From Candidatus Omnitrophota bacterium (GTDB lineage: Bacteria; Omnitrophota; Gorgyraeia; Zapsychrales; Zapsychraceae): a DNA stretch of 64,000 nucleotides. Made by a program: the position numbers and the translations under genes. Positions 35,895 through 52,147 of the stretch are shown piece by piece. The DNA lies in the NCBI GenBank assembly GCA_029261055.1, contig JAJDCA010000044.1:13867-77866 (forward strand). Direction: 5' to 3'. The notes below the pieces were generated by a model. That model had not been told where the DNA came from, ran no database searches, and saw only the letters and a list, made by a program, of their open reading frames with translations. Position 1 is the stretch's first letter; each line of letters starts with the position of its first letter.

Positions 35895-35899
35895 TCAAA

Positions 35900-37077: not shown

Positions 37078-38952
37078 ATGCCGCTCAAAGTCCGCATTCC
37101 GGATGACAATTATTGGAAAGAACAAATTAAATGTCAATATGCCTGCCCGGTACACACCGATGCACGTGGATACGTGCGTGCGGTTGCAGACGGAGATTTT
37201 GACAAGGCTTATCTCATTGCACGTGCACCAAATCCGTTAGCCTCGATTTGCGGGCGGATTTGCGGGGCACCGTGTGAAGCGGCTTGTCGACGTGGCAGCG
37301 TGGATAAAAGTATTTCGATTCGTGCGCTTAAACGTTCCGCTGTTGACCATCATCAATACCAAGACAACCAGCCGCTTAATCTCATCCAAAAAATAAAAAC
37401 ATCCTTACAAAATCGTGATTGTTCCGACCTTGAAGATTTAGGTGGGTTATTCCAGAATTTTGATAATCAAAAAATGCCTAAAACAGAGGGGCAAAGCATT
37501 GGCATTATCGGCTCCGGCCCGGCGGGATTAGCTGCCGCGCATGATTTGGCCCTGATGGGATTTTCTGTCATCATTTATGAAATGGAATCGGTCCCGGCAG
37601 GGATGTTGTATTTAGGGGTGCCGGCCTACCGTCTTCCGCGTGAACTCATCGAGGCGGAGGTAGATGTCATTAAAGCTTTAGGTGTTGAAATCAAAACGAA
37701 TTGTACTATTGGTAAAGATATTACTTTTGATGCTTTACGCAAAAAACATCAAGCGGTTATTATTGCGGTCGGATGCAAGAAGTCTCGTTCAATTCCGTTG
37801 CCAGGAATTGACGCCGAAGGGGTGATTGGTGGTGTCGAATTTTTAAGAGATGTTTCTCTGAATTTACCGCATACCATCGGGAATAAAGTCGTCGTGATCG
37901 GTGGTGGTAACGTGGCCTATGATGTGGCCCGTTCGGCTCTTCGACAACAACAAATGGATGTGGCCGCCACGGCCTTGCATGAACGCGAAGGGATTAAGGT
38001 TACTTTGTCTTGTTTAGAACGGGAAGATGAAATGTTGGCGGATGAAATTGAAATCTTAGAAGGGGAAGAAGAAGGGGTCACTCGACAAAATGGGTATGGT
38101 CCTCAGGAAGTTTTAACAAAAAATAATAAAGTAACCGGTGTGGTATTCCATAAAGTGATTTCTATTTTTGATGAAAATAAACAATTTAATCCAAAATATG
38201 ATCCCAATCAATCCATCACAATTGAAGCGGACACAGTTTTATTGTCCGTGGGGCAACGTTCTGATATTTCTTTTGTAGATCCCAAAAAAGACGGCGTAAC
38301 GATTAATGATAGGGGGATTATGACGTGTGACCCTGACACTCTGGAAACGACGGCGTCGGGTGTTTTTCTTGCGGGTGATTTGGCGCATGGACCGCGACTC
38401 ATGATTGATGCGATTGCCAGCGGTAAAAAAGTAGCCCGTTCAATTTATCAAAAATTAATAGGCACAGCCTTTTCGTTTGACAGCAAACAAACGCATGTTC
38501 CTATTGAAAATTATTCGCGCGAGGCCGGTTACGAAAAAATTCGCAGACAAGTCTTGCAATCCGTAGAAGTTACCGATAGAATTTATAATCATACAACGGT
38601 GGTTGAAAAAGGTTTCACCTGTGGCCAGGCCAAGGTGGAAGGGGCCCGTTGTTTTGATTGCAGTGTCAACACGATCTTTGACGGTAATAAATGTATTCTT
38701 TGCGGTGGGTGTGTGGATGTGTGTCCTGAATTATGCCTTAAACTTGTTCCGATCGATGAACTCGATGGCGATAAAACATTTTCCGAATTAACAAATATTG
38801 TTAAAGAACAAAAATCCACTGATGAGTTAACTGCTATTATTAAAGATGAAGAAAAATGTATTCGGTGTTCCTTATGTGCCATTCGTTGTCCGGTTGATGC
38901 CATTACGATGGAACGATTTTCGTTTACAACAGCTACGTGTCAAAAAAAATAA
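37078..38952 (+). CDS. GltD-like NAD(P)H/FAD oxidoreductase with N- and C-terminal iron-sulfur domains
   Basis: 624 aa. N-terminal Cys clusters (CQYACPVHTDARG, CGRICGAPCEAAC) as in the glutamate synthase small subunit. Two Rossmann motifs (IGIIGSGPAGLAAA, VVVIGGGNVAYD). C-terminal 2x[4Fe-4S] (CILCGGCVDVCP, CIRCSLCAIRCP). Confidence 0.8.
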   Translation: MPLKVRIPDDNYWKEQIKCQYACPVHTDARGYVRAVADGDFDKAYLIARAPNPLASICGRICGAPCEAACRRGSVDKSISIRALKRSAVDHHQYQDNQPLNLIQKIKTSLQNRDCSDLEDLGGLFQNFDNQKMPKTEGQSIGIIGSGPAGLAAAHDLALMGFSVIIYEMESVPAGMLYLGVPAYRLPRELIEAEVDVIKALGVEIKTNCTIGKDITFDALRKKHQAVIIAVGCKKSRSIPLPGIDAEGVIGGVEFLRDVSLNLPHTIGNKVVVIGGGNVAYDVARSALRQQQMDVAATALHEREGIKVTLSCLEREDEMLADEIEILEGEEEGVTRQNGYGPQEVLTKNNKVTGVVFHKVISIFDENKQFNPKYDPNQSITIEADTVLLSVGQRSDISFVDPKKDGVTINDRGIMTCDPDTLETTASGVFLAGDLAHGPRLMIDAIASGKKVARSIYQKLIGTAFSFDSKQTHVPIENYSREAGYEKIRRQVLQSVEVTDRIYNHTTVVEKGFTCGQAKVEGARCFDCSVNTIFDGNKCILCGGCVDVCPELCLKLVPIDELDGDKTFSELTNIVKEQKSTDELTAIIKDEEKCIRCSLCAIRCPVDAITMERFSFTTATCQKK

Positions 38953-38955
38953 TTT

Positions 38956-39417
38956 ATGTCAAATTCTAACAAAAAAATAACCCGGAGAGATTTCTTAGGG
39001 TTATCTGCTTTGTGGACATGCCTTGCCGCATGGTTTTTCACATTTCTCGGTCTTCTTAAATTCCCCAAACCTGCATTATTACCTGATGTATCTAATGTCT
39101 TTAAAATTGGCCGTCCTGACGATATTCCAATAGATAGCGAAAAAATTTATGATGATAAAAAAGTCCTTATTGTACGCGACAATGAAGGGGTTTCTGCTGT
39201 TTCGTTGATTTGTACGCATTTAGGATGTATTGTTTCGAAAAGCAAAGATGGATTTTCATGTCCCTGTCATGGATCAAAATTTGATACCAATGGGGATGTG
39301 ATTGCAGGACCAGCCCCTCGGGGATTAAGCTGGCTTGAAGTAAGTCAACTTCCCAGTGGAAAATTAGTTGTGAATGCCGGGAAACGTGTGCCGGAGGGGA
39401 CGAAGTTTGTAGTTTAA
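38956..39417 (+). CDS. petA: Rieske [2Fe-2S] protein, TAT-targeted and membrane-anchored
   Basis: RRDFLGLSALW twin-arginine signal/TM. CTHLGC ... CPCHGS Rieske boxes. Confidence 0.85.
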   Translation: MSNSNKKITRRDFLGLSALWTCLAAWFFTFLGLLKFPKPALLPDVSNVFKIGRPDDIPIDSEKIYDDKKVLIVRDNEGVSAVSLICTHLGCIVSKSKDGFSCPCHGSKFDTNGDVIAGPAPRGLSWLEVSQLPSGKLVVNAGKRVPEGTKFVV

Positions 39418-39423
39418 AATTAT

Positions 39424-39490: not shown

Positions 39491-39526
39491 ATATAAAATT
39501 ATCTTATCGATATCTGGAAATAATTA

Positions 39527-41065
39527 ATGCCTATCAAAAAATTTTACCAAAATCTTAAACAATTACCTCAAACGTTTATCGAATCCATTATTCGCAATGA
39601 TAAACCTACGTCTGATCGAGCGCGTAGCCAGGCGGTGTTTGGAAACATGTTCCTTCATATTTTCAGCACACGTATTCATCGTTATTCGTTAAAAAAGACA
39701 TTCACCTTTGGATTAGGTATCATATCTGCTTTTTCCTTTATAATCCTTATTGTCACAGGCATTCTTTTAATGATTTATTACAAGCCATCAGTCGAATTGG
39801 CCTATGATTCTATCAAAGACATTCAATACATTGTCCCTGGTGGTCGATTTATTCGTAATGTGCATCGCTGTGCTACCAATGTTATGATCGTGGCTGTTTT
39901 TCTTCACATGGCAAGAGTCTTTTATACGGCGGCTTACAAACGCACGCGTTCTTTTAATTGGGTTTTAGGCATTGGACTTCTTGCCTTAACGCTGATGATG
40001 AGTTTTACAGGTTATTTGCTTCCCTGGGATCAGTTAGCCTATTGGGCAGTTACGATTGCGACGAATATTGCGGCTTCAACCAGTGAATTAACGGATGCAT
40101 TAAATATTACGGCTTATTTTGATCCAGGACATGTCATTAAGGTTCTTTTGTTAGGATCAGAAAATATTGGGCAGGATGCCCTAACGCGTTTTTATTGGCT
40201 GCATTGTATTATTCTTCCAGTGGCCTTGGTGATGGTTTTGGCCGTGCATGTATGGCGTGTGCGCAAAGATGGAGGATTGGCCAGGCCGGATACACTTACA
40301 GAAGAAGATTTGAAAGGTACGCCGAAAGATCCGCTTTCTGATAAGGTTTTTAATCATGCGCCGCAGAAAACATACGGTTTAATGTGCCTGGTTAAAGGGA
40401 AGTCCAATGCTGTCAGCAGAGGACCGGAACAAACCGTTTCGAGCTGGCCTCATATGATGATTCGTTTAGTAGGGTTGTTTATGCTGACATTTGCACTATG
40501 TTGTATTTATGCCTATTTTGTTGAAGCTCCGCTTAAAGAAATGGCTAATCCCGCCGTACCAGAAAATCCTGCCAAGGCACCATGGTATTTTCTAGGTTTG
40601 CAAGAATTAGTTTCTTATTCTGCTTTTATGGGAGGCGTCGGCATTCCAACCTTAGCCCTTTTAGGATTAGCTTTAATTCCGTATTTGGACAGAGAAAATC
40701 AAGAAATTGGGCGTTGGTTTGATGATAAAAAAGGGAAGAAAGTCGCCATACAATCTTTCATTTATGCCTCCGTTGTTGTGATCGGTATGCTTATTTTTAC
40801 GGTGAGTTTTGGATGGTTACGCAATTGGTTTCCTGCCATTCCTCAGCTGGCGATTACATTTATTAATCCGGGAACCATATTAGTTGGATTTTATGTCGGG
40901 TGGTCTTTATATTGTATGGCCAAATATAAATCAACACGCATGTCGGCGATTGCTTTATTTACATGTTTTCTTGTTGGCTTTTTAGTTTTAACGTATTTTG
41001 CAACCTTTCACCGTGGACCAAATTGGGATTTTTATTGGCTAAAGAGCCAGTGGCCTATTCATTAA
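39527..41065 (+). CDS. petB: Cytochrome b (fused cytochrome b6 / subunit IV-like, long form)
   Basis: 512 aa with ~9 TM helices. The His pairs on helices (HRCATNVMIVAVFLHMARV ... HCIILPVALVMVLAVHVWRV) have the spacing of the bL/bH haem ligands. Follows the Rieske gene. Confidence 0.85.
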   Translation: MPIKKFYQNLKQLPQTFIESIIRNDKPTSDRARSQAVFGNMFLHIFSTRIHRYSLKKTFTFGLGIISAFSFIILIVTGILLMIYYKPSVELAYDSIKDIQYIVPGGRFIRNVHRCATNVMIVAVFLHMARVFYTAAYKRTRSFNWVLGIGLLALTLMMSFTGYLLPWDQLAYWAVTIATNIAASTSELTDALNITAYFDPGHVIKVLLLGSENIGQDALTRFYWLHCIILPVALVMVLAVHVWRVRKDGGLARPDTLTEEDLKGTPKDPLSDKVFNHAPQKTYGLMCLVKGKSNAVSRGPEQTVSSWPHMMIRLVGLFMLTFALCCIYAYFVEAPLKEMANPAVPENPAKAPWYFLGLQELVSYSAFMGGVGIPTLALLGLALIPYLDRENQEIGRWFDDKKGKKVAIQSFIYASVVVIGMLIFTVSFGWLRNWFPAIPQLAITFINPGTILVGFYVGWSLYCMAKYKSTRMSAIALFTCFLVGFLVLTYFATFHRGPNWDFYWLKSQWPIH

Positions 41066-41118
41066 TGAGCACATAATTTATGGAGCGTAAGCGAACATAA
41101 ATTATCTGTGCGAATTAA

Positions 41119-41159
41119 CCCTGCGAAGCTCAACGCGAAAGCAATTGAGCGAAGCAGGG
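41119..41159 (+). promoter_or_regulatory. Structured 5' leader hairpin upstream of the decahaem cytochrome gene
   Basis: CCCTGC-GAA-GCTCAA-C-GC[GAAA]GC-AA-TTGAGC-GAA-GCAGGG forms a two-tier stem with symmetric GAA/GAA internal loops and a GNRA tetraloop. GC-rich in an AT-rich region. Confidence 0.4.
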
Positions 41160-41168
41160 TAAAATAAT

Positions 41169-43745
41169 ATGAAAAAACTCATTATATTTTCCAGTCTTGT
41201 CATCATCCTCGTTCTTCTTGCCGAAGCCAAGCGCGAAAATTTGAGCATGGATTGGCAAAAATATCAGAAGCAATACCGCAGTGAATTACTTCAATTAGCT
41301 GAAACACCTCAAGAAAAACAAATCGCCAAACAATATGCAATTCAAATGCGTCAGATTGTTCTTCCGGAACAAAATAAAGTGGATCGCTGTACGATTTGCC
41401 ATGTCGGTGTAGAAGACGGACGTATGGCCGATAAACCTAATCCACTTAAAACACATCCGGGCAATTATTTGGAAGTTCATGAAGTAGAAAAAACTGGATG
41501 TACCATTTGTCATGACGGACAGGGACGGGCGATTACCTTTGCTGAATCCAAAGCCCATGCTGAAGATAAATTTTGGGAAAAACCTGTTTTAAATAAACCC
41601 TTTGTGGAAGCAAATTGTTACCGTTGTCATCAAAATACGCTGGCCGCCACGCCGAATTATAATCACGGAAAAGAGTTGTTTGACACGAACGGATGTTTAG
41701 GGTGCCATCAAATTAATGGGAAAGGCGGCATCAAAGGACCGGATCTTTCTAATTTAGGTAATGCCAATTTTCACGTCAAAATGCCGACAGATCATAACCG
41801 TCATGACCTTTTACACAAATTCGACGAAAATGTTAATTTGGCCTATATTTATGAAGCCGTAAAAGATCCGCATGCCCAGCCGCTTGATTCCGCCATGGTC
41901 GATTATAAATTTACAGATGAAGATTCAATTGCTTTAACGGTGTATTTAAAAAGTTTATTAGATGATAGCGTACCTAAAGATTTATTAGCCACACGTAAAC
42001 CCCAAACACCTCTGACACCTTTACAACATGGCCAGCAATTATATGGCATGTATTGCATAGCCTGTCACGGGGAGGAAGGTAAAGGCACACATTTAAACGA
42101 ACTTAGTAAAATCGGACCGGCGATCGGTAACACCGAATTTTTGGCGATTGCAGATGATAAGTTAATCAATCATGTCATCAGTTTTTCAAGGGGTGGTGAA
42201 ATGCCGCCATTTAAAAAGAGTGGAGGACTGACAACCGAAGAAATTGCTCATATTACGGAATACATTTTATCTTTGAAAAAAACGCCGCCTTCGTTTGAAG
42301 AAGTCAGCACCGTTGAAGGAAATGCAAAATACGGCGCAGCTTTTTTTGCTACCAATTGTGCCAGCTGTCACGGTGCCGATGCCAATTTTGAACAAGACCT
42401 TGTTGGTCCCACATTAAATAATCCAACCCTTTTAGGTTTAGCCACGAAAGAATTTTGGTATGACACTATTGTCAACGGTCGCCTCGGCACCGCCATGCCT
42501 TCATGGCATTTTTTAAATAAAACCCAAATTGCCGATGCGATTGCTTACCTTGAATCTCTCAAGCCTGAGCCACTTGATACAAAGAAGGTATTGGCCTTAA
42601 TACAAAAAGGGGCTTCACTGGAAAACGGGGAAAAACTTTACAAAGGAAATTGTTCAAGTTGTCACGGTTTATCCGGTGAAGGCGGTTTAGCCCCAAGCCT
42701 TAACAATAAAGAATTCCACCAAATTACCGATGCGAAATTTATTTTAAAGGTCTTAATCGAAGGCCGCGAAGGTACAGCCATGCCGAGCTGGAACCATTTA
42801 CCCGAAGAAAATGTGGCTGACCTGATTGCTTACATTAAATCATGGCAGGTGGGTGATTCTGTTGAATTGTCGAACGAGCGTATCATCAGCTCGGAGATAC
42901 AAGGAAAAGCCTTGTTTCAAGAATCGTGTCAAAAGTGTCACATGGTGGGGCGGGGTAGTGTAGTGGCACCGGCTATTTTTTCCAAAGGATTTCTCCGACA
43001 GGCGAGCGATCAGTACATAAAGCACAGCATCATGTATGGACGCGGGCACACCGCCATGCCGCCGGCCTTAGTCGGTACAAGCGGTGTGGTTGAGTTAACA
43101 GATGAAGAAATCAATTCCATGGTGGCCTACATCCGTTCATTTGAAAAATTCCCGGTTGAACTTAAAGGGATGTCCATGTACTACGGTAACAATGCTGAAG
43201 GAAAAGAATTGTTCGGTCGCAGTTGTGCGCAATGTCACGGAGATCATGGTGAAGGCGGCGTTGGTCCGGCGATTGGGAAAAAAGGATTTTTGGATAGTGT
43301 TTCCGACGGATTTATTTATGCGATGTTGCGCATAGGACGTCCAGGATCTGAAATGAAACCATTCCCGCCTCACGGAGATGGTTTTAGTAATTTAAGTGAT
43401 ACTGAAGCTTCCGATATTATCAGCTTTTTGCGATCTAATATTTCTAACGCCGAGAAACATACGAAAAAGGTTAGAGGTTATGCCCAGAGAGGTAAAGAAT
43501 TTTTTGCTGCGTATTGTGCGCAATGTCATGGAATAAATGGACAAGGTGGCATCGCTCCTGATTTGAATAATAAGAATTTTATGGACTCTGTGTCCGATAG
43601 TTATTTACAAGCAACGATGTCATTGGGACGACACGGCACTCAAATGAAACCCATGATGAAAGGTGGAAGCGGGGTTGTTGAACTTTCATCACAGGAAGTT
43701 AATAATATTATTAGTTATTTGCGATCATTGATCGAAATAGAATAG
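41169..43745 (+). CDS. Multihaem c-type cytochrome (about 10 CxxCH), N-terminal multihaem region plus tandem class-I monohaem domains
   Basis: Signal/anchor MKKLIIFSSLVIILVLLA. CxxCH motifs: CTICHV, CTICHD, CYRCHQ, CLGCHQ, CIACHG, CASCHG, CSSCHG, CQKCHM, CAQCHGDHG, CAQCHGING. The last six are each followed by a Met-containing GTAMP / GxxM motif typical of His/Met monohaem domains. Confidence 0.85.
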   Translation: MKKLIIFSSLVIILVLLAEAKRENLSMDWQKYQKQYRSELLQLAETPQEKQIAKQYAIQMRQIVLPEQNKVDRCTICHVGVEDGRMADKPNPLKTHPGNYLEVHEVEKTGCTICHDGQGRAITFAESKAHAEDKFWEKPVLNKPFVEANCYRCHQNTLAATPNYNHGKELFDTNGCLGCHQINGKGGIKGPDLSNLGNANFHVKMPTDHNRHDLLHKFDENVNLAYIYEAVKDPHAQPLDSAMVDYKFTDEDSIALTVYLKSLLDDSVPKDLLATRKPQTPLTPLQHGQQLYGMYCIACHGEEGKGTHLNELSKIGPAIGNTEFLAIADDKLINHVISFSRGGEMPPFKKSGGLTTEEIAHITEYILSLKKTPPSFEEVSTVEGNAKYGAAFFATNCASCHGADANFEQDLVGPTLNNPTLLGLATKEFWYDTIVNGRLGTAMPSWHFLNKTQIADAIAYLESLKPEPLDTKKVLALIQKGASLENGEKLYKGNCSSCHGLSGEGGLAPSLNNKEFHQITDAKFILKVLIEGREGTAMPSWNHLPEENVADLIAYIKSWQVGDSVELSNERIISSEIQGKALFQESCQKCHMVGRGSVVAPAIFSKGFLRQASDQYIKHSIMYGRGHTAMPPALVGTSGVVELTDEEINSMVAYIRSFEKFPVELKGMSMYYGNNAEGKELFGRSCAQCHGDHGEGGVGPAIGKKGFLDSVSDGFIYAMLRIGRPGSEMKPFPPHGDGFSNLSDTEASDIISFLRSNISNAEKHTKKVRGYAQRGKEFFAAYCAQCHGINGQGGIAPDLNNKNFMDSVSDSYLQATMSLGRHGTQMKPMMKGGSGVVELSSQEVNNIISYLRSLIEIE

Positions 43746-43754
43746 GAGATTATT

Positions 43755-46421
43755 ATGCCAAAATCTAAGGGATCTATAACACGAAGAAATTTTTTGAAAG
43801 GAACTGTCGCTGGCGCAGCCGCGTTAGGCATGTCGGATACATTGTTTAGCCCGACTAAGGTCATGGCCGAGGAATTAGGCCTTGTTAATAAAGTTATCGA
43901 GATGCCGGCACAATGTCCCTATTGTGGCGTCGGGTGTGGCTCCATTATTAAATTTGATCAAAAATCTGCAAAGATTATCGGCGTTGTCCCGGATAAACAA
44001 CATCCAACCAATAAAGGCGTGCAATGCATTAAAGGATTAAATGCCGACGAACCAACTTATGTTGATCGACTTAAAAAAGTCTTAGTACGAAAAGATATGA
44101 GTGATCCTTTAAGAGGGTATGTATCTAAATCTAAAGGTAGCTTTGATGACAAAGATTTTCATGAAGTTTCTTTTGAAGAAGCCGAAGAATTGGTCGCCCA
44201 TAAAATGGGGGAAATTTACAAAGCACATGGTGGCAACAGTATTGGATTATACGGTTCAGGCCAATTGACCGTTGAAGCGCAGTGGATCGAAAACAAACTC
44301 GTTAAAGGTGTTTTAGGTTCCAACTCCATTGAAGCGAATGCCCGTATGTGTATGACGTCGGCTGTAACGGGCTATTTTGCAACCTTAGGCAGTGACACCC
44401 CACCACTTTCGTATGACGATATTGAAATGTCGGATATGATTACCTTCTGGGGGCACAATCCTCGAGGAGCTCACCCGATTGTCTTTTGGCGTGTGGCAGA
44501 TCATAAAAAATCTAAAGACATCCCAACCGTTGTGTCTGATCCCAGAAGAACAGGATCTGTGCAAGCTTTAGAAGGCATTAATCCACGGAATAGTTTTCAT
44601 TTTCAAAGTATCAACGGTGATATTTCGATTTTAAACGCCATCGGCCATGTTCTCATTAAAGATCATGAAGATATTATTGATTATCCTTTCTTAAAAGAAC
44701 ATGTAACAGGTTGGCAAAAATACGTGAAGATGGTCACAGAAGAATACTCTCCGGAACAAGTACAAGATCGTTCAATGGTAGATCCGCAGCTTATACGCAC
44801 GGTCGCCGCTCAATGGGCAGATGCGACGCGTAAACGCAAACGCCGTGGAACTGGTGGCGTCATTTCTTTCTGGGGTATTGGTTATAATCAACATCTGCAT
44901 GGACAGCATAATGTCATTAGCCTTATTAATCTCCATGCCTTAACAGGCAATATTGCTAAGCCGGGATGTGGTCCATTCTCCATGACAGGACAACCAAATG
45001 CCATGGGTGAACGACTTATGGGGGGATTAACAGGACGCCTTCCTTTTAATATCGGCATAGAGAATGAAAAACATCGTGATTGGATTGGAAAAATTTGGAA
45101 TGTTCCCAAAGAACGTATGGACAAAATGGCGATGGAGAAAAATCCTGGAATGATGATCGGTTTATTTGAACGAGCAATGAAAGGTGATGTAAAGGGTATG
45201 TTTTATATGTACACAACCCATATTCATCAACCGGATCTGAATACATTGATTCGACCTGCTCTTTCTAAATTATTTCTTGTTGTCCAAGATATTTACCGGC
45301 ATGCCCCGAATAACCTTTATGGCGATGTCATCTTTCCAGCTTTGACCTGGGGTGAATGGCAGGGGGGAACATACATTAGTTCAGAAAGACGATTTAACGT
45401 CGTTGACGGTATTGGAAAAGGTGCACCCGGACTTGAAAATTGTGTTCCTGATCTTGATTTGGCCATTGATAAAGGAAAAAAATTGGCCAATATAGTCGGT
45501 TTAGACGGCGATAAAATTTTCCCTTATAAAAAGAAAAAATTTCATCCAGATGGGCCCATGCTTTATGATTCTGAAGAAGTGTTTGAAGAAATCATACGAG
45601 GTTCTAAGGGAACGGATGCTGATTTAACAGGTATGTTAGAAGTGCGCGATCGTGACGGTATCGGCCTTTATGAGCAACTTCGTCGTTTAAGAGGCATGCA
45701 ATGGCCGGCGCCAACCTATGAAATAGCCAAACAAGGCGGCGTTAAACGACGCTATATGGGGCAAGAAGGATGGAAAGATAAAACATATGGTATGTTTCGG
45801 CATAAGGACGGTAAGTTGCATATGAAAGCTTGCCAACAGGATTATTCTAAAAGAAAAGAAGTTACGGCTGAATTAGAAAAATTTGGAACAGTAGAAGGTT
45901 ATTATACCATTGATCATCCGGAAGTATTAACCAAGGCGCGCGATATGGCCCTCACACCGGAGATGCCGGATTCTGAAGATCTTGGAAAACATTGGAAAGA
46001 AATCCCGAAAAATAAATACCCGTTCTGGCTTGGTTTAGGAATCGTGTATGAACATTTTCATACAGCCAAAACGATTCGCGGCGCAACCACTCGACGTTTG
46101 GTACCGGAACAGTATGTAGAAATGCATCCGGATGACGCCGAAGAAAATGGTCTGCGTGATGGAGATCAAATAAAGGTTATTACACGACGGGGCGAATATC
46201 AAGGGCGTGTCAGTGTCGGGGGGTATCGTAGTAAAGTCAAGCCGGCACGAAATGAAGTGCCGAAAGGATACATTTTTTCTCCATGGAATTTATCTGTGGC
46301 GGATTCGGCAGATCCGAAAAAAAATAAATGGTTAGTTAATGCCGTTTCTCACAGAGCCTATGATCCTGTTTCCGGTCAAGCTGACTTCAAAAAACTTGCG
46401 GCTCGGATTGAAAAGATTTAA
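43755..46421 (+). CDS. Divergent periplasmic NapA-like bis-MGD molybdoenzyme (nitrate-reductase-like; substrate not proven)
   Basis: 888 aa. TAT signal (ITRRNFLKGTVAGAAALG). N-terminal 4Fe-4S box CPYCGVGCG ... C-x-KG aligned to NapA. NARMCMTSAV aligns to the NapA Mo-ligand cysteine region (NARLCMASAV in the canonical NapA at 61197). Confidence 0.85.
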   Translation: MPKSKGSITRRNFLKGTVAGAAALGMSDTLFSPTKVMAEELGLVNKVIEMPAQCPYCGVGCGSIIKFDQKSAKIIGVVPDKQHPTNKGVQCIKGLNADEPTYVDRLKKVLVRKDMSDPLRGYVSKSKGSFDDKDFHEVSFEEAEELVAHKMGEIYKAHGGNSIGLYGSGQLTVEAQWIENKLVKGVLGSNSIEANARMCMTSAVTGYFATLGSDTPPLSYDDIEMSDMITFWGHNPRGAHPIVFWRVADHKKSKDIPTVVSDPRRTGSVQALEGINPRNSFHFQSINGDISILNAIGHVLIKDHEDIIDYPFLKEHVTGWQKYVKMVTEEYSPEQVQDRSMVDPQLIRTVAAQWADATRKRKRRGTGGVISFWGIGYNQHLHGQHNVISLINLHALTGNIAKPGCGPFSMTGQPNAMGERLMGGLTGRLPFNIGIENEKHRDWIGKIWNVPKERMDKMAMEKNPGMMIGLFERAMKGDVKGMFYMYTTHIHQPDLNTLIRPALSKLFLVVQDIYRHAPNNLYGDVIFPALTWGEWQGGTYISSERRFNVVDGIGKGAPGLENCVPDLDLAIDKGKKLANIVGLDGDKIFPYKKKKFHPDGPMLYDSEEVFEEIIRGSKGTDADLTGMLEVRDRDGIGLYEQLRRLRGMQWPAPTYEIAKQGGVKRRYMGQEGWKDKTYGMFRHKDGKLHMKACQQDYSKRKEVTAELEKFGTVEGYYTIDHPEVLTKARDMALTPEMPDSEDLGKHWKEIPKNKYPFWLGLGIVYEHFHTAKTIRGATTRRLVPEQYVEMHPDDAEENGLRDGDQIKVITRRGEYQGRVSVGGYRSKVKPARNEVPKGYIFSPWNLSVADSADPKKNKWLVNAVSHRAYDPVSGQADFKKLAARIEKI

Positions 46422-46455
46422 AATACAAAACTAAAGACCGTAAAGCTCAGACTTT

Positions 46456-46490
46456 AGACCAAGGATTAATTTAAAATCTTTGGTCTTTTG
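46456..46490 (+). terminator. Candidate rho-independent terminator after the NapA-like gene
   Basis: AGACCAAGG - 13-nt loop - CTTTGGTCT gives a 9-bp stem with one G-U pair, followed by TTTT. Confidence 0.5.
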
Positions 46491-46583
46491 TCTATGCAAG
46501 AAAATCGCCTTTGTCGATAACCTGAAGGCGTATTTTTGGTGCCGATAGGAAAGTTTTATACTTTCCTATACGGGCAAAAAATT

Positions 46584-47171
46584 ATGATCAGAAGAAATTT
46601 TATTAAACGCACCTTAATATTTTTTGCCGCGAGTACTCTTTATTCACTCATGGGAAACCATGTGGTCTTTGGAAAAACCAGAAAAATATTCAAGAAATAT
46701 TTACGCCCCCCCGGAGCTCTTCCTGAAAAAGATTTTTTAGCGACGTGTATTAATTGTCATCGTTGCGGACAAGCCTGCCCCAGCGATTGTATTCAGTACA
46801 TTAATGATCCATTAAATCCTTCAATGCACGACACGCCCTACATTAATCCACGACAGAAGGCTTGTATTCTTTGCATGAAATGCACACAAGCCTGCCCGTC
46901 AGGATCTTTACAACGTATTGATAATGATGATTCCGATTCTATTCACAAACACGTAAAAATGGGAATTGCGGTTGTGGATACAAATATTTGCAATTCTTAC
47001 AATGGATATTCCTGCGGCGTATGTATCCGGGCTTGTCCTTTAGGAGAAGAAACTTTAAAAACAGGCAACTGGGAACGTCCAATCGTTAACCCTGATAACT
47101 GTGTTGGCTGCGGGCTTTGTGAACAAAGCTGTATTCACTATCCACAGGCGATAAGGGTAGAACCGATATGA
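46584..47171 (+). CDS. napG: NapG/MauM-like periplasmic 4x[4Fe-4S] ferredoxin, TAT-exported
   Basis: MIRRNFIKRTLIFFAAS TAT-like signal. Four ferredoxin boxes (CINCHRCGQACP, CILCMKCTQACP, CGVCIRACP, CVGCGLCEQSC). I set the start at the internal ATG rather than track ORF 46536. Confidence 0.75.
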   Translation: MIRRNFIKRTLIFFAASTLYSLMGNHVVFGKTRKIFKKYLRPPGALPEKDFLATCINCHRCGQACPSDCIQYINDPLNPSMHDTPYINPRQKACILCMKCTQACPSGSLQRIDNDDSDSIHKHVKMGIAVVDTNICNSYNGYSCGVCIRACPLGEETLKTGNWERPIVNPDNCVGCGLCEQSCIHYPQAIRVEPI

Positions 47172-48598
47172 TCACAAAATTTCGACGACTAATTCAATGG
47201 AGTATTTTCTTAGGCATCATCCTCATTACTGTCTTAAATTATTACGAAAACCAAAAAGTAAAATATGGAGGAGAGTTGGTTATTCAAGAATCACCCATTT
47301 TACGGACTGTAGATAAAATTTTTGGGCAGCTTGAAAACCGCACAAAAATTGTCACTTTTTTACAAGGGGATGTTTGGTCGTTTCAAATAGGCTCTATTAA
47401 AATTACGGATCCATTGGCCTTTATTGGCAATATCAGTCGCACCAAAGCTATCTATTGGCCACTTTTTTTAGCCGCTTTAATCCCGATCATTCTGACAATT
47501 CTTTTAGGAAAAGTGTTTTGTAGTTGGATTTGTCCGATGGGACTTTTGTTTGAATTAAATGCAAAATTACGCACCGTGTTACAAAAATTCGCTTTACCGT
47601 TAGGTAATTTTACATTGCCTCCTTGGTGCAAATATATTGTATTAGGCGGTGGAATTTTTACAGGGCTTGTTTGGGGTGCCCATTATTTCTTTCTGATTTA
47701 TCCCCCCAAAATTATTTCCGGTGAAATTTATTTTAGTGTCATTAAATCTTCATTAGGATATGGCGTTGCATTTCTTTTTCTGCTTTTAGCGATTGAATTA
47801 TTTCTTGCCCCACGATTTTGGTGTCGTTCGCTTTGTCCCGGAGGGGCATTGTACACCTTATTGAGTCAATTTCGCTTTTTACGCATTAAAAACGATTTAA
47901 ATCGCTGCACAAACTGCGGCATTTGCGATACCTTGTGCCCATATGACATCACCCCGTCCAAAGGAAAATTATCATTGGAATGTGATCATTGTTCTCTATG
48001 TATTACTAAATGCCCAGTCAAAAGCCTTTCTTTTAAGATGCCCAACCGTACACACACCCCCGGGGTGTGTATATGGTTAATCTTAACCATGTGTCTTTTT
48101 TTCAATGCGACAACGGCATCAGCGCATCATATCCGCGGATTACCACATTATGGATATTCTGAAAATTATCCGCAGACGCCAACGTATGAAGAAATTCGTG
48201 TGGTTGATGATTGGAAAGTTAATTTTTCATATATAAAAATTTTTGAAACCAAAAATTGTGATTTAGCTGTTTATTTAAAAAATACAAAAACCGGGAAACC
48301 ATATGCTGGAAAAATTCGGTTTAAAGTTTTTGGCGAAAGGGAAGACCCTGAAGCTTCGCCTTATTATGATACGCATTTTGATCCAACCAATACGTTCCGC
48401 GTAGGATGGGCTTATGAATTGGATGGTGTTTACATTGTGAGAGCCCAATTTTTTGATGAAGGCAAAGAGTATATTGAAGATTTTCGTATGCAAATAGGCA
48501 AAGTTGGATTTAATCCGTTATGGTGGGCTATTCCAGGAATATTTGTTTTAATTTTAATCATATTAATTGCTGTGAAACAACGGAGGAGCTCTAAATGA
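47168..48598 (+). CDS. napH: NapH/MauN/CcoG(RdxA)-family membrane polyferredoxin with C-terminal periplasmic beta-domain and terminal TM
   Basis: TM helices with CSWICPMG and CRSLCPGG (CxxCP) motifs. Two ferredoxin boxes (CTNCGICDTLCP, CDHCSLCITKCP). ~170-aa C-terminal extension ending in a TM helix, as in CcoG/FixG. ATGA overlap with napG. Confidence 0.75.
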   Translation: MITKFRRLIQWSIFLGIILITVLNYYENQKVKYGGELVIQESPILRTVDKIFGQLENRTKIVTFLQGDVWSFQIGSIKITDPLAFIGNISRTKAIYWPLFLAALIPIILTILLGKVFCSWICPMGLLFELNAKLRTVLQKFALPLGNFTLPPWCKYIVLGGGIFTGLVWGAHYFFLIYPPKIISGEIYFSVIKSSLGYGVAFLFLLLAIELFLAPRFWCRSLCPGGALYTLLSQFRFLRIKNDLNRCTNCGICDTLCPYDITPSKGKLSLECDHCSLCITKCPVKSLSFKMPNRTHTPGVCIWLILTMCLFFNATTASAHHIRGLPHYGYSENYPQTPTYEEIRVVDDWKVNFSYIKIFETKNCDLAVYLKNTKTGKPYAGKIRFKVFGEREDPEASPYYDTHFDPTNTFRVGWAYELDGVYIVRAQFFDEGKEYIEDFRMQIGKVGFNPLWWAIPGIFVLILIILIAVKQRRSSK

Positions 48599-50121
48599 TT
48601 ATGTCGGGTTTACCAAAGTGGTTATTTTTTACAAGTATTGCGCTTGTGTTGATGATTTCATTTATCCTGGTAGAGTGGTTAAACCGATCCAATCGTAAGG
48701 CCAAGCCCTATCCTAAGTTTAACATTCTTTCCATTCCCGGCGTCAAGGCTTGTGTGAAGGCCCCATTTTTTAAATTCCTTTTTCAATTTCCTGTATTTTT
48801 AATTTTCTGCCTTATTATTTATGCCGGTATTTACGGACATGCCGTGATTAATATTGCCCCTGTATTGACTTGGACCATATGGTGGGCAGGACTCATTTTT
48901 CTAATTTTATTTTTTGGTAAGGCCTGGTGTTTTGTGTGTCCCTGGGATTTTGTCGCGACTCTTTTTCAATATTTAAAACCATTCGGTGTCAGCAAAAAAC
49001 CTTTTACATTGGGATATAAATGGCCAAGGTGGCTGAAGAATATTTATTTGGCTATTGGATTATTCGTTCTCTTAACATGGTTTGAGCTAGGATATCATGT
49101 GACGGCCTCACCACGCTTTACAGCAATATTAGCGATTGTCATTGTTTTTCTCTCCGTCATTCCGGCTTTAATTTTCGAAAAACGTTCTTTTTGTAAATAC
49201 GGGTGCCTCATTGGACGCATTTCAGGATTGTATGCCATGTTTTCACCTGTGGAAGTGCGCAGTGCAGACTTGGATGTATGTACAAAATGCAAGACAAAAG
49301 ATTGTTATACCGGAAATGATAAAGGTAATGCTTGCCCAACATCACTTGTGATTCCTCAAATCAAAGAAAATACCTATTGTATTTTATGTACAGAATGTGT
49401 CAAAAGTTGTCCGCACGATAATGTCGCCATTAATGTACGCCCCTTTGCAACGGATTTGAAAAATTTTACAAAAGTAAAAAGTGATGAAGCCATACTGGCC
49501 ATTATTCTTTTGGCCTTAACATCCTTTCATGGACTCACCATGACCCCACTGTGGGATTCACCGACAGGTAATTCAATAATCCATTCTATACGTTCCATCA
49601 CAGGATTTGGACCATTAGGGGCCTTTACATTAGGCATGTTTTGTGTGAATGCAGCGTTAGGTTTATTTTATTATCTAATCGCCTTAATTACACAACGATT
49701 TGTCGGAGAGCCGCAGGTTTCAACTAAAAAAGTTTTTTTGTATTACGCCTATTCTTTGCTACCCATTGCTTTGTTTTATCACTTAGCGCATAATGCCATG
49801 CATGTATTCATGGAGGGGCAAGTTGTCGTCCCCTTAATTTCGGATCCATTAGGGCAGGGTAATAATTTCTTTGGCACGGCGCAATGGTATTTGGCACCGC
49901 TGTTATCACACAGCAGCATTTGGTATCTGCAGGTGGGACTTGTCCTCATCGGACATATTTTTGGTATTATTATCGCGCATCATGTTTCACGAAAACTTTA
50001 TTCTGATCGCAGGGCCGCCATACGATCATTAGTTCCTATGCTCATCGGCATGATTTTTTACTCATTTCTTTCCTTATGGATTATGCATTTGGATATGAAT
50101 ATGCGGAGTAGTTTGATGTGA
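48595..50121 (+). CDS. Second NapH/MauN-family membrane polyferredoxin with extra C-terminal His-rich TM helices
   Basis: CFVCPWD and CKYGCLIG CxxCP-type motifs in TM context. Ferredoxin box CILCTECVKSCP. The C-terminal ~200 aa have 4 additional TM helices carrying conserved His (HLAHNAMH, GHIFGIIIAHH). Confidence 0.7.
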   Translation: MIMSGLPKWLFFTSIALVLMISFILVEWLNRSNRKAKPYPKFNILSIPGVKACVKAPFFKFLFQFPVFLIFCLIIYAGIYGHAVINIAPVLTWTIWWAGLIFLILFFGKAWCFVCPWDFVATLFQYLKPFGVSKKPFTLGYKWPRWLKNIYLAIGLFVLLTWFELGYHVTASPRFTAILAIVIVFLSVIPALIFEKRSFCKYGCLIGRISGLYAMFSPVEVRSADLDVCTKCKTKDCYTGNDKGNACPTSLVIPQIKENTYCILCTECVKSCPHDNVAINVRPFATDLKNFTKVKSDEAILAIILLALTSFHGLTMTPLWDSPTGNSIIHSIRSITGFGPLGAFTLGMFCVNAALGLFYYLIALITQRFVGEPQVSTKKVFLYYAYSLLPIALFYHLAHNAMHVFMEGQVVVPLISDPLGQGNNFFGTAQWYLAPLLSHSSIWYLQVGLVLIGHIFGIIIAHHVSRKLYSDRRAAIRSLVPMLIGMIFYSFLSLWIMHLDMNMRSSLM

Positions 50122-50705
50122 CCAAAGAAAACCTTTCCCGACGAGATTTTTTTAAAAAAGGATTAAAGTCGTTGGCTCAAGGCGCCAAGGAAACCGCCAC
50201 GATTTTATATTCATCGGAAGAACCCATTACGCCCAGCCGAACTCTTGTACGCCCTCCCGGAGCATTACCTGAAAAAGAATTTCTTGAAAAATGCACACGA
50301 TGTAATGAATGTGTGAAAGTCTGTCCTGAAGAATCCATTATGAAATTTGTCGGCGAAGAATCGCCCCTGCATTTAACACCCATGCTTTCCGTGCGTAAAT
50401 CACCGTGTGTGCTTTGTGAAGATTTTCCGTGTATCAAAGTATGCGAACCCGAAGCCTTAGTGATGCCGGCTGCACGTGAAGAAGTAAAAATGGGCATAGC
50501 GGTGATTAATGAAAAACTTTGTTATGCCTGGCAAGGGGGCCAAGATTGTGATTACTGTATTAAAGAATGCCCCATAGGAGAAAAAGCTATTTATTTTGAT
50601 GAAGTACGCCGGCCGCATGTATCGTCGGAACATTGTACTGGCTGCGGATGCTGTGAATATATTTGTCCCAGTCGTCAACCGGCGATTGTTGTCGGCACGC
50701 GTTAA
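50118..50705 (+). CDS. Second NapG/MauM-like periplasmic 4x[4Fe-4S] ferredoxin, TAT-exported
   Basis: SRRDFFKKGLKSLA TAT signal. Boxes CTRCNECVKVCP, CVLCEDFPCIKVC, CDYCIKECP, CTGCGCCEYICP. Confidence 0.75.
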   Translation: MTKENLSRRDFFKKGLKSLAQGAKETATILYSSEEPITPSRTLVRPPGALPEKEFLEKCTRCNECVKVCPEESIMKFVGEESPLHLTPMLSVRKSPCVLCEDFPCIKVCEPEALVMPAAREEVKMGIAVINEKLCYAWQGGQDCDYCIKECPIGEKAIYFDEVRRPHVSSEHCTGCGCCEYICPSRQPAIVVGTR

Positions 50706-50789
50706 AAAATTTATTATATTTTTCTTGTATTGCTATAAAACTATGGCACCATACGAATATTCAATTAACTAATATCCAATCAAGGGTAT

Positions 50790-50880: not shown

Positions 50881-50917
50881 CAATAAATTTTAAACCTTGA
50901 AAAGGGGAGGGAATTAG

Positions 50918-52147
50918 ATGAAACGTTTAATAGCTTTACTGCTTTTAACATTAATTTTTTGCATAAGTGAAGGGTATGCAGCGGAGTCTCTTAAAGAGGT
51001 TTTTACAGAAGGAACGCCTTATATTGATATTCGATTGCGCTATGAACATGTCGAACAAGATGGTTTGATAAATGCAAATTCAAAAACAGCGCGAACACGT
51101 TTAGGTTTTAAATCCGATAAGTTTTATAATTTTGTTGGTGTTATTGAAGGAGAAGGTGTTTTTTATTTAGGAAATGATGATTATAACGACACGGTTAATG
51201 GTCGTACTGATCATGCCACGGTCGCTGATCCTGAGAATGTACAAGTCAATCAAGCTTATGGAGAATATACAGGAATTCCTGATACAGCGATCAAAGCAGG
51301 TCGGCAGGTTATTACGCTGGATGGCCACCGTTTTATTGGCCATGTTGGATGGCGACAAAATAATCAGGTCTTTGATGCCGCGATGATCACGAACTCGTCT
51401 ATTCCAGACACAACAGCAAAATATGGTTATATCTATAATGTAAACCGTATTTTTGGTGAACAATCCACGGGAGGCGACTGGGGTTCCAAAAGTCATTTCT
51501 ACCATATTGCCAACACAAGTCTACCCTTTGCTAAAGTTGCCGCGCATGGATACATTCTTGATTTTGGGAGTGATTCCGCCGCAAATTCTAACAAAACATT
51601 TGCTGTTAATTTTTCAGGAAAAAAAGAATTAAATGATGATTTTACTTTTAAATATTATGGCGAATATGCCCATCAAACTGATAATGCAGATAACACAACT
51701 GATTATGATGCGAGTTATTACCATATAGCTCCAGCCATCGCCTGGAAAAGTCTAACAGCAACAGTAGGTTTTGAAGTCTTAGGCAGTGATGATGGTAAAT
51801 TTGCTTTTAGGACACCTTTAGCGACTCTGCATAAATGGAATGGTTGGTCAGATAAATTTTTAACAACACCGGCTAACGGGCTTCAAGATTTTTATGTTGA
51901 TTTAACCTATAAAGTAAAAGATTTAGATGGAAATTTAGAATTTCTTAATGGATTGTTAGCTAAGGTTCAATACCATGATTTTGATGCAGATAATGGAGGT
52001 TTGGATCATGGAAAAGAATTCGGCGTATTTCTTAAAAAACCCATTAATAAGAACCTTGTTGTCAGCACAAAATATTCAAATTATATGGCTGATAAGACAT
52101 CAACTGATACACAAAAAATAACTTTTGATATTGGTATTAAATTTTAA
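50918..52147 (+). CDS. Outer-membrane beta-barrel protein (putative porin), paralogue of the ORF at 32838
   Basis: Signal peptide (LLLLTLIFCISEGYAAE). IRLRYEH motif near the N-terminus shared with ORF 32838. C-terminal ...GIKF aromatic terminus. Confidence 0.6.
   Translation: MKRLIALLLLTLIFCISEGYAAESLKEVFTEGTPYIDIRLRYEHVEQDGLINANSKTARTRLGFKSDKFYNFVGVIEGEGVFYLGNDDYNDTVNGRTDHATVADPENVQVNQAYGEYTGIPDTAIKAGRQVITLDGHRFIGHVGWRQNNQVFDAAMITNSSIPDTTAKYGYIYNVNRIFGEQSTGGDWGSKSHFYHIANTSLPFAKVAAHGYILDFGSDSAANSNKTFAVNFSGKKELNDDFTFKYYGEYAHQTDNADNTTDYDASYYHIAPAIAWKSLTATVGFEVLGSDDGKFAFRTPLATLHKWNGWSDKFLTTPANGLQDFYVDLTYKVKDLDGNLEFLNGLLAKVQYHDFDADNGGLDHGKEFGVFLKKPINKNLVVSTKYSNYMADKTSTDTQKITFDIGIKF

Follow-up and report, generated by a model that had tools for sequence, protein, structure and literature searches.

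A NapA-like molybdoenzyme and its conserved partner genes, including an anammox-type Rieske/cytochrome b-NAD(P) module, in an Omnitrophota genome

The 64,000-nucleotide stretch of contig JAJDCA010000044.1 analysed here (referred to throughout as the window), which belongs to the assembly of a Candidatus Omnitrophota bacterium, encodes a molybdenum (Mo) enzyme related to the periplasmic nitrate reductase NapA, and this enzyme and the genes around it are the subject of this report. An earlier reading of the DNA (the original prediction) had described the gene as a second, divergent NapA paralogue, closed by its own terminator and lacking NapB and NapD. What lies at the locus is an intact nitrate-reductase-type enzyme with a cysteine-ligated Mo-bis-pyranopterin guanosine dinucleotide (bisPGD) cofactor, which forms a clade of its own and has fixed partners, here including a Rieske/cytochrome b-NAD(P) module of the anammox type. 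All the genes from 34935 to 52147 are on the + strand, and the ATG of the enzyme is placed 9 nt past the stop codon of a decahaem cytochrome gene. The gene and the structure that follows it are:

43755..46421, + strand: NapA-like Mo enzyme of 888 residues, exported through twin-arginine translocation (TAT), with Cys-ligated Mo-bisPGD (ATG start; Pfam, NCBIfam, alignments and an AlphaFold2 model)
46456..46486, + strand: intergenic hairpin with a 12-bp stem, then TTTTGTCT / UUUUGUCU

Pfam recognises in the 888-residue protein the domains TAT_signal (23.3 bits, residues 8-26), Molybdop_Fe4S4, Molybdopterin and Molydop_binding, and the open reading frames (ORFs) together with the Pfam and NCBIfam matches confirm that the window holds two TAT-exported NapA-type enzymes. 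As had been predicted, this paralogue differs from the canonical NapA of the window both in length (888 versus 782 residues) and in sequence, with 29% identity over the full length (E 8e-93). Its scores with the curated hidden Markov models (HMMs) are 350.4 and 331.9 bits for the two NapA models (NF010055 and TIGR01706, with cut-offs of 904 and 930.55), 309 bits for formate dehydrogenase alpha (Fdh-alpha; cut-off 666), and 262 and 234 bits for NasA and NasC (cut-offs 1000 and 1100); since all of them are under the cut-off, the enzyme reaches no curated NCBIfam family.

The residues that hold the cofactors are in place. The iron-sulfur ligands C54, C57, C61 and C91 with K93, the Mo ligand C199 followed by M200, and Q413 and R420 are common to Nap and Nas and invariant across the family described below (16 members aligned with Nap and Nas; the cofactor ligands also in a separate alignment of 76 rows, made up of 75 members and the canonical NapA). 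The CxxCxxxC...C box and the context of the Mo ligand (ANARMCMTSAV here, NARLCMASAV in the canonical paralogue) are therefore kept, as the original prediction had it. In a direct alignment to the NapA of Desulfovibrio desulfuricans, C199, M200, Q413 and R420 correspond to Cys140, Met141, Gln346 and Arg354 (crystallographic numbering), and in the NapA of Cupriavidus necator the Mo-ligand Cys is residue 181 of the precursor (152 of the mature protein) and the active-site Arg residue 421 (392 in the mature protein). The roles assigned here to these positions follow the structural literature on NapA. The alignment with structurally characterised NapA proteins thus conserves the ligands and changes a residue of the pocket, the Met308 of D. 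desulfuricans being Ile375 here. The AlphaFold2 model of the enzyme (76 sequences; pLDDT 80, pTM 0.84) is nearest to solved NapA structures, with template-modelling (TM) scores of 0.86 to 2jio, 0.81 to 2nya and 0.79-0.81 to 3ml1, 3o5a and 1ogy, and formate dehydrogenases rank next. These comparisons support the assignment of the enzyme as a divergent NapA-type paralogue whose catalytic site is, to judge from its residues, intact.

The likeness to canonical NapA (2NYA, 3ML1, 1OGY, 2NAP/2JIO) extends to TAT export, the CxxCxxxC...C [4Fe-4S] box with its following Lys, the Mo-ligand Cys followed by Met, the equivalents of Gln346 and Arg354, the overall fold (TM scores of 0.79-0.86) and the presence of NapG/NapH-type genes in the operon, as in Wolinella and Escherichia coli. 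The differences are also considerable: the identity is only 24-29%, the clade is separate, family-specific insertions add approximately 130 residues (the largest being 700-746, with another at 118-134), Met308 is replaced by Ile and an Arg-Glu pair (RE) by Arg-Leu (RL), there is neither NapB nor NapD, and the partner is a class-I cytochrome c of the His/Met type, whereas that of canonical NapA is the bis-His dihaem protein NapB.

To judge from sequence comparison, the enzyme is a member of a tight family (56-88% identity) that spans at least eight phyla. A word-indexed search through 5.8 billion proteins gave upwards of 120 matches at 62-88% identity, every one of them generically named, from Omnitrophota, Verrucomicrobiota, Myxococcota, Hydrogenedentota and Bdellovibrionota. 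Members at 56-63% identity were found, in a scan of one genome per species, in Gemmatimonadales, Gallionellaceae, Motiliproteus and other Gammaproteobacteria, Hyphomicrobiaceae, Rhodospirillaceae, Phycisphaeraceae, Planctomycetaceae, Calditrichaceae, Sericytochromatia and the cultured Photobacterium frigidiphilum JCM 12947; most of the other matches in that scan, at 27-33% identity, are cytoplasmic Nas/NarB-like proteins that start at the FeS box. The nearest named relatives are metagenome-assembled genomes (MAGs) of Omnitrophota, and the habitats of the family comprise groundwater, marine, sediment and hydrothermal MAGs. None of the 72,556 plasmid records searched carries a homologue, nor is there a characterised one among them, above 31% identity.

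The family is also isolated. In an exhaustive HMMER search of 1.84 billion representatives at 50% identity it forms a single cluster, whose representative scores 1033 bits (56% identity); two sister lineages score 750 and 511 bits, a relative designated P0133 scores 442 bits, and beyond these no full-length protein among the 1.84 billion exceeds 317 bits. P0133 (680 residues, 40% identity) has neither the Cys-Met motif of the Mo ligand (VNG--CEPASAA there) nor the TGQP motif, and its sequence suggests that it may be a cofactor-less pseudo-enzyme offshoot of the family. In a tree built by neighbour joining only (690 columns, 100 bootstraps) the family is monophyletic with 100% bootstrap, groups with the sister lineages at 98-100%, and branches on a long stem outside the NapA clade (100%) as well as the Nas clade, with the formate dehydrogenases far away; the phylogenetic placement that had been proposed as a check thus puts it outside the latter. 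With the assimilatory enzymes (NasA, NasC, NarB) the family shares the TGQPNAMG(G/E)-R motif and the Cys-Met context of the Mo ligand, at 28-33% pairwise identity, but Nas enzymes are cytoplasmic, have no TAT signal, start at the FeS box and take ferredoxin, flavodoxin or NAD(P)H as partners, whereas the family is exported and encoded among cytochrome c and NapGH-like genes. The identity of an assimilatory nitrate reductase was rejected on the basis of the TAT signal, the scores under the cut-offs and the position outside the Nas clade.

Periplasmic nitrate reduction is at present classed as Nap (NapAB together with either NapC or NapGH), and the cytoplasmic relatives of these enzymes as Nas. 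Neither Pfam nor NCBIfam contained a model of the family in June 2026, and the searchable full-text literature (subscription-only papers fall outside this scope) yielded no description of the clade or of a NapA-like enzyme on a Rieske/cytochrome b-NAD(P) operon. A NapA phylogeny of 2025, based on 251 homologues from cultured organisms, none of them less than 30% identical to D. desulfuricans NapA, does not include such a clade (PMC12769810), and a survey of the MopB superfamily published in 2023 lumps everything under NapA or NasC/NasA (PMC10100899). What appears to be new is the lineage of Nap/Nas-type enzyme and its wiring, the Nap/Nas kind of enzyme itself being known.

Four genes that precede the enzyme constitute what is called here the chassis:

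37078..38952, + strand: GltD/NfnA-like NAD(P)/FAD Fe-S subunit, 624 residues, cytoplasmic (Pfam Fer4_20, Pyr_redox_2, 4Fe-4S dicluster)
38956..39417, + strand: Rieske [2Fe-2S] subunit, TAT-exported, 153 residues (PF00355; motifs CTHLGC and CPCHGS)
39527..41065, + strand: cytochrome b6 fused to a subunit-IV-like domain, 512 residues (PF00033, PF13631; approximately eight transmembrane helices by hydropathy)
41169..43745, + strand: decahaem cytochrome c, 858 residues, membrane-anchored (ten CxxCH motifs, N-terminal transmembrane helix; Cytochrom_C seven times and Cytochrome_CBB3 six times)

No signal peptide was found in the GltD/NfnA-like subunit, whose best matches in the PDB are NfnABC (9bov/9bp5) and FwdF (5t5i), and the same structural homologues have been reported for Kuste4570 of anammox bacteria (PMC12954380). 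The best PDB match of the Rieske subunit is 9rk4 (E 3.6e-24; 88.8 bits versus 72.6 for the next), and 9rk3 also matches; these entries are Kuste4569 and Kustd1480, the Rieske subunits of two unusual Rieske/cytochrome b complexes of Kuenenia (PMC12954380). The best PDB matches of the cytochrome b are cytochromes b6, and its anammox likeness, as well as that of the NAD(P) subunit, was judged via PDB templates. Two histidines in its N-terminal cytoplasmic stretch, His44 and His51, are invariant in seven sequences from five phyla, and the place of the first recalls that of His43 in Kuste4571, for which a role as ligand of an additional haem b has been proposed, an equivalence that is suggestive and positional only. 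The motif at the Qo site that corresponds to PEWY (residues approximately 350-360) reads KAPWYF, with Ala for Glu, in all seven sequences. The decahaem cytochrome consists of an N-terminal tetrahaem part followed by six class-I (CcoP-like) monohaem domains.

In its gene content, with an NAD(P)/FAD Fe-S protein, a Rieske protein, a b6-type cytochrome b and a multihaem cytochrome c, the chassis matches the type represented by Kuste4569-74 of anammox bacteria. The Kuenenia complexes contain a b6-type cytochrome b with an enlarged subunit IV (SUIV), multihaem c and an NAD(P) oxidoreductase, one of the two has in addition an HAO-like octahaem protein, and they have been proposed to bifurcate the electrons of quinol between NAD(P)+ and a high-potential acceptor (PMC12954380). 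Common to the chassis of the window and to Kuste4569-4574 and Kustd1480-1485 are the NAD(P)/FAD Fe-S subunit, a Rieske protein of high similarity, the b6-type cytochrome b with enlarged SUIV, a multihaem c that takes the place of cytochrome f and an additional catalytic subunit in the periplasm; the latter is a Mo-bisPGD NapA-like enzyme in the window and an HAO-like octahaem protein in anammox. The window differs further in the fusion of cytochrome b and SUIV, in a decahaem cytochrome with six class-I domains and in the addition of NapGH-like genes, and the hosts of its type of chassis are not anammox bacteria but Omnitrophota-labelled, Nitrospirota, Planctomycetota, Calditrichota and Gemmatimonadota MAGs.

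The surroundings of the family were compared by tblastn over 15 loci and through the gene tables of further loci (the compared loci are labelled L001-L096). The order of the chassis genes is identical, and the GltD/NfnA-like subunit syntenic, in L001, L007, L012, L014, L088, L090 and L092. In 12 of the 15 genome loci a cytochrome c is the immediate upstream neighbour of the enzyme, and in one other locus (L087) it lies directly downstream; in L006, L011 and L015 the tblastn comparison gave no upstream cytochrome match. NapG/NapH-like genes stand 3' of the enzyme in every locus long enough. Two architectures are conserved. In the first, the full Rieske/cytochrome b/NAD(P)/multihaem set is upstream, as in the window, its Omnitrophota-labelled relatives, Nitrospirota, Gemmatimonadota, Planctomycetota and Calditrichota; in the second, found in Proteobacteria, Myxococcota, Sericytochromatia and P. 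frigidiphilum, the full set is replaced by a dihaem class-I cytochrome of 190-260 residues that adjoins the enzyme and resembles CcoP and QcrC. It follows that the invariant core is formed by a class-I cytochrome c, the enzyme and the NapG/NapH-like modules. In P. frigidiphilum, whose cluster occupies L013:9330-18694, an extra NapC/NirT gene is placed at the end of the cluster. Synteny thus supports the partnership with the upstream bc/decahaem module that the original prediction had offered as one option, the module or its dihaem equivalent being upstream in 12 of 15 loci.

The chassis is not tied to the NapA-like enzyme. Homologues of its NAD(P) subunit at 54-75% identity are numerous, and the whole cluster, NapA-like enzyme included, recurs in a Nitrospirota MAG. 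In four other loci (L093:10001-20763, from an Acidobacteriia MAG, L094:10001-20658, L095:10001-16259 and L096:10001-21008; of the last three MAGs one is labelled Firmicutes) a four-gene chassis with a multihaem cytochrome of approximately 495 residues is followed by an enzyme of the type II DMSO-reductase family. In L094 the alpha subunit scores 1168 bits on TIGR03479 (cut-off 985), with NarG second best, and the beta subunit 493 bits (cut-off 481), and the enzyme has an EB_dh haem-b gamma subunit and a NarJ-like chaperone (delta); these subunit scores are from L094 only, L093 and L096 agree in Pfam content, and L095 ends inside the alpha gene. The presence of either a NapA-like or a type II enzyme on the same chassis implies that the periplasmic terminal modules are interchangeable, and the known relatives of these modules act on N-oxyanions. 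The Rieske/cytochrome b-NAD(P) complex thus appears to be a modular platform used beyond anammox bacteria. An Rrf2 regulator is usually encoded upstream of the chassis that carry type II enzymes, often with a hemerythrin/RIC-like gene. Compared with the NsrR, IscR and RirA models, the Rrf2 regulators near related clusters matched only the superfamily model above its cut-off, and they are therefore not diagnostic of the sensing of NO.

The genes that flank the enzyme and its chassis, those for cofactor synthesis upstream and the rest downstream, are the following:

34935..37033, + strand: MoaA and fused MobB/MobA, synthesis of the bis-molybdopterin guanine dinucleotide (bis-MGD) cofactor (TIGR02666, 286.5 bits; PRK14490, 426.5 bits; both above cut-off)
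46584..47171, + strand: first NapG-like poly-ferredoxin, periplasmic, TAT signal MIRRNF (NapG 134 bits, cut-off 269; MauM/NapG 121, cut-off 179)
47168..48598, + strand: first NapH-like membrane Fe-S protein, 476 residues (NapH/MauN 117 bits, cut-off 213)
48595..50121, + strand: second NapH-like polytopic membrane protein, 508 residues (weak NapH match)
50118..50705, + strand: second NapG-like poly-ferredoxin, periplasmic, TAT signal SRRDFF (NapG 137.5 bits, cut-off 269)
50918..52147, + strand: outer-membrane porin, 409 residues, possible accessory (weak Opr-porin and Alginate_exp matches)

Genes of molybdenum cofactor (Moco) synthesis also adjoin the cluster in L087, L002, L007 and L010. The first NapG-like gene probably starts at the ATG at 46584, the mechanical ORF beginning at a TTG at 46536, and the NapG-like proteins have both TAT motifs and Cys clusters. 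With NapGH of Wolinella succinogenes and E. coli, MauM/MauN and NosG/NosH, these genes share the combination of a TAT poly-ferredoxin and a Fer4_5 membrane protein with cytoplasmic 4Fe-4S sites, and they are placed directly after the catalytic gene, as in those systems. They differ from NapGH in that there are two or three copies per cluster and in that the NapH-like proteins are longer (476-508 versus approximately 255-290 residues), those of the window having an extra uncharacterised domain and extra transmembrane helices. Orthologues of the second NapH-like protein (34-49% identity) occupy the same position in 11 loci.

Among the neighbours of the enzyme no protein matches the NapD or NapB families in the Pfam and NCBIfam scans, and neither was seen in approximately 20 related loci, which were searched with the cluster proteins of the window or listed by Pfam domain, NapD and NapB not being among the queries. 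The original prediction, which had stressed that NapB and NapD are missing beside the gene, is literally right in this respect but misleading, as conserved dedicated partners flank the gene.

Several observations concern individual members of this downstream group. The extra C-terminal domain of the first NapH-like protein (residues approximately 300-476, about 177 in all; window 48065-48595) is homologous to L013:15190-15777 (E 3e-14), so that it is fused in the window and a separate ORF in P. frigidiphilum; the domain, a conserved part of the cluster, has approximately 180-200 residues, a hydrophobic leader, a conserved (A/S)HH(I/V)xGxPxY motif and a C-terminal transmembrane helix. A 201-residue ORF without a Pfam match is similarly placed at L087:15105-15710. 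Pfam has no family for this C-terminal domain or for the second NapH-like protein. In an Omnitrophica WOR_2 MAG (L090:13378-16545) both NapH-like genes are fused into one ORF of 1055 residues, a hint that this pair of membrane proteins functions as one unit. In the closest relative a MOSC-domain protein of 161 residues is encoded directly after the last NapG-like gene (L088:17361-17846); since domains of this kind handle the sulfur of molybdenum cofactors, it could be a maturation factor that replaces NapD or FdhD; the window has no equivalent. Porins of the Alginate_exp/Opr-like kind, to which the gene at 32838-34088 of the window is also counted, adjoin the cluster in L004:19254-20471, L087:7757-9319 and L090:17694-19022, with weak mutual similarity (E 1e-5). 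The association is suggestive, and porins that recur in such distant lineages may be an anion channel for the substrate.

The enzyme shares the window with a canonical nitrate reductase, as the original prediction had recognised:

60853-61125: NapD (PF03927)
61197-63545: canonical NapA, 782 residues (940.3 bits versus the NapA cut-off of 904)
from approximately 63548: NapB-like ORF with CxxCH motifs

Upstream of this set there are a small multihaem c (56369-56938), a DsrO-like Fe-S protein (56862-57893), a DsrP/NrfD-like membrane protein (57893-59125; 420 bits, DsrP cut-off 350) and a multihaem cytochrome of the HAO family with 481 residues (59233-60678). The region 56369-60678 has the appearance of a nitrite reductase module of the epsilon-Hao type that has a quinol dehydrogenase of its own, and modules of this type beside nap have been described in Caldithrix and Campylobacterota.

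On balance, we favour the interpretation that the enzyme is a periplasmic terminal oxyanion reductase, nitrate being the likeliest substrate, fed through the Rieske/cytochrome b and NapGH-like proteins and possibly coupled to the reduction of NAD(P)+, and that, as part of this scheme, it is probably the catalytic subunit of a third periplasmic lineage of Nap/Nas-type molybdoenzymes. The enzyme would be exported folded by the TAT system, with one [4Fe-4S] cluster, Mo-bisPGD on Cys199 and a pocket of the nitrate-reductase type. Quinol would be oxidised by the Rieske/cytochrome b complex, by the NapGH-like modules acting as Fe-S quinol dehydrogenases, or by both, and the electrons would reach the [4Fe-4S] cluster and then Mo through class-I c haems (here those of the six C-terminal domains of the decahaem protein), NapG-like ferredoxins or both, the NapB/NapC route not being used. 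A high-potential oxyanion, with nitrate as the default candidate, would then be reduced in the periplasm, so that the Mo enzyme would be the high-potential electron sink, the position held in anammox by the HAO-like octahaem protein. A Q cycle would make periplasmic nitrate reduction protonmotive and, more speculatively, the low-potential branch would reduce NAD(P)+ by bifurcating the electrons of quinol. Four points make nitrate the most plausible substrate: the core shared with Nap and Nas is conserved, the accessory genes are of the Nap type, the alternative module is NarG-like, and the family is spread very widely across environments.

There are precedents for part of this scheme. The dependence of Nap on Qcr has been demonstrated genetically in Campylobacter jejuni (PMC6195509), and in Caldithrix the nap genes are clustered with Rieske/cytochrome b genes and a protonmotive Nap has been proposed (PMC5317091). 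Both C. jejuni and Caldithrix abyssi resemble the window in having a periplasmic nitrate reductase fed by a Rieske/cytochrome b quinol oxidase in an electrogenic manner, with NapGH present, but their NapA is canonical (with NapB or NapM), their Qcr is an ordinary one that lacks an NAD(P) oxidoreductase subunit, and the C. jejuni genes are unlinked (PMC6195509; PMC5317091).

A number of points weigh against this interpretation. The same genome has a canonical NapDAB beside an epsilon-Hao-like gene, which makes a second nitrate reductase look redundant, and nine positions that are invariant in Nap and Nas carry another, equally invariant residue in the family; they include Met308 of D. desulfuricans NapA (Ile375), and the acidic residue after the active-site Arg (Glu in Nap/Nas, Asp in D. 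desulfuricans) is Leu or Phe. Judged from the alignments, these switches could indicate a different substrate, and together with the coexisting NapDAB they speak against nitrate. The NapG/NapH-like proteins all score below the curated cut-offs, though NapG and NapH are their best families, and the two potential quinol-oxidising routes that the window encodes (Rieske/cytochrome b and NapGH-like) leave their division of labour unexplained. High-potential His/Met c haems are also typical of Mo enzymes that oxidise their substrates. The substrate and the direction of electron flow, like the physical association of the components and the bifurcation, are what we infer from the genes, and even in anammox bifurcation is a hypothesis (PMC12954380).

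A more ambitious version of the scheme, which we put forward only tentatively and regard as rather doubtful, is that the cluster encodes a self-contained supercomplex, an electron-bifurcating menaquinol:nitrate/NAD(P)+ oxidoreductase. One electron of quinol would travel through the Rieske protein and ten c haems to the NapA-like enzyme (approximately +430 mV), and the other through b haems and Fe-S clusters to FAD and NAD(P)+. If this were true, the chassis would be a general modular device, at home well outside anammox and serving HAO-like, NapA-like or type II NarG-like reductases, and it would be for this use that the NapA-like family and its class-I cytochrome partner evolved together.

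Among the alternatives, the one that survives best keeps the same machinery and changes the substrate to another high-potential oxyanion, such as chlorate or perchlorate, selenate, iodate, bromate or similar. The replacements at Nap/Nas-invariant positions, including Met308 to Ile375 and RE to RL or RF, point in this direction, and a different substrate would explain the coexistence with NapDAB and might give the recurrent porin a function as a dedicated anion channel. Specificity is, moreover, plastic in the NapA fold, given that the canonical NapA of C. jejuni already reduces chlorate and perchlorate (PMC12769810). The breadth of the family (at least eight phyla, many habitats), however, better suits a common substrate such as nitrate, the core of Cys-Met, Gln and Arg is of the nitrate reductase type, and no chlorite dismutase and no selenium- or iodine-related genes were seen in approximately 20 neighbourhoods inspected. 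Another oxyanion, including the chlorate, selenate and arsenate that the original prediction had named as candidates, is thus the less probable substrate, and we do not favour it.

It is improbable, although the haems give it some footing, that the enzyme works in the oxidative direction, for instance as a nitrite or arsenite oxidoreductase that delivers electrons to c haems, with the Rieske/cytochrome b-NAD(P) and NapGH-like proteins devoted to reverse transport towards quinone and NAD(P)+. The partner haems are of class I, CcoP/QcrC-like and with Met-containing motifs, as in the acceptors of Mo-dependent oxidases; an uphill flow of electrons could end at the NAD(P) module; and NXR is a member of the type II group, that of the alternative module on the chassis. 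Quinol dehydrogenases of the NapG/NapH type feed reductases in the Nap systems of Wolinella and E. coli, though, and the NapG/NapH-like proteins and the NapC/NirT of L013 are known in that capacity. Furthermore, no locus has a terminal oxidase linked to the cluster, the closest relatives (Nap and Nas) are both reductases, and the genomic setting is one of anaerobic respiration, with Psr-like, Frd, epsilon-Hao-like and Nap genes.

That the gene is an ordinary, redundant NapA isoenzyme with its own terminator, functionally independent of its neighbours, is very improbable. It would be consistent with the lack of an adjoining NapB or NapD, with the 162-nt gap that separates it from the first NapG-like gene and, above all, with the strong hairpin and T-tract after its stop codon. 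This structure is as real as the original prediction had it: the stem has 12 bp, the intergenic RNA fold has a z of -4.8 (0 of 200 shuffles were as stable), and a hairpin of other sequence is found at the same position in the closest relatives, L088 (identity approximately 88-90%, as judged from cluster membership) and L090 (79% at the protein level), with the same TTTTGT after it. None of the observed features of the enzyme, its motifs and the hairpin is attributable to chance. In L088 and L090, however, the hairpin lies within a gap of 76 nt that reaches to the start codon of the NapG gene, so that a promoter would have no room there; over 18 loci the distance from the enzyme to the next gene varies between -1 and 344 nt and is 41 nt or less, or an overlap, in seven; and no promoter-like site was found on the + strand of the window from 46422 to 46584. 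The claim that the hairpin is a terminator closing a stand-alone gene did not hold, since NapG/NapH-like genes follow: synteny and the intergenic comparison rule it out and identify a conserved feature within the operon, which is probably an attenuator or a 3' stabiliser that sets subunit stoichiometry, and likely a partial terminator or mRNA-stability element. Independence is further contradicted by neighbours that are conserved across phyla, and the status of an ordinary NapA was rejected on the scores far under the NapA cut-offs and the placement outside the NapA clade in the tree. Relative to L088 and L090, the window has an insert of approximately 85 nt between the hairpin and the NapG-like start (46490-46583), with a second stem-loop at approximately 46503-46532.

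The weakest alternative, a periplasmic formate dehydrogenase or an inactive pseudo-enzyme, which might be suggested by the 309 bits with the Fdh-alpha model, by formate dehydrogenases being the next-best folds and by the lineage P0133 without the Mo-Cys motif, is contradicted by the sequence and was ruled out by the motif alignment: Cys199 is followed by Met and not by the His of formate dehydrogenases, Thr411 (T411-G-Q-P) stands in place of their Arg before GQ, the Mo ligand and the active-site Arg are kept along with the other invariant cofactor ligands, the tree places the family elsewhere, and conservation is strong across phyla (56-88% identity).

The family, as a widespread and highly conserved lineage with its own electron-transfer wiring, would add a third one to Nap and Nas. 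Since annotation pipelines label it only "molybdopterin oxidoreductase", gene surveys of the nitrogen cycle miss it or misassign it. Kartal et al. are said to have made a proposal in 2013 on the Rieske/cytochrome b complexes of anammox bacteria, whose role has reportedly been in question since then, and both the linkage of the family to a complex of this type and the NarG-like alternative bear on what these complexes do. The clusters also offer systems outside anammox in which quinol-based bifurcation can be tested, and may show how cells make NAD(P)H during nitrate respiration. The question of the substrate is directly testable because at least one cultured bacterium, P. frigidiphilum JCM 12947, carries the enzyme, in a simpler setting of dihaem cytochrome, NapGH and NapC.

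Elsewhere in the window, a third molybdoenzyme operon of the TAT type is found at 26674-32788, with a divergent LysR regulator. It comprises a 4Fe-4S subunit (27716-28462), an NrfD-like membrane subunit (28464-29594), a PhsA/PsrA-like catalytic subunit (29607-32168), which with 321 bits versus a cut-off of 694 is not an equivalog, and a TorD/NarJ-like chaperone (32168-32788), and it is followed by a Porin_5 gene (32838-34088).

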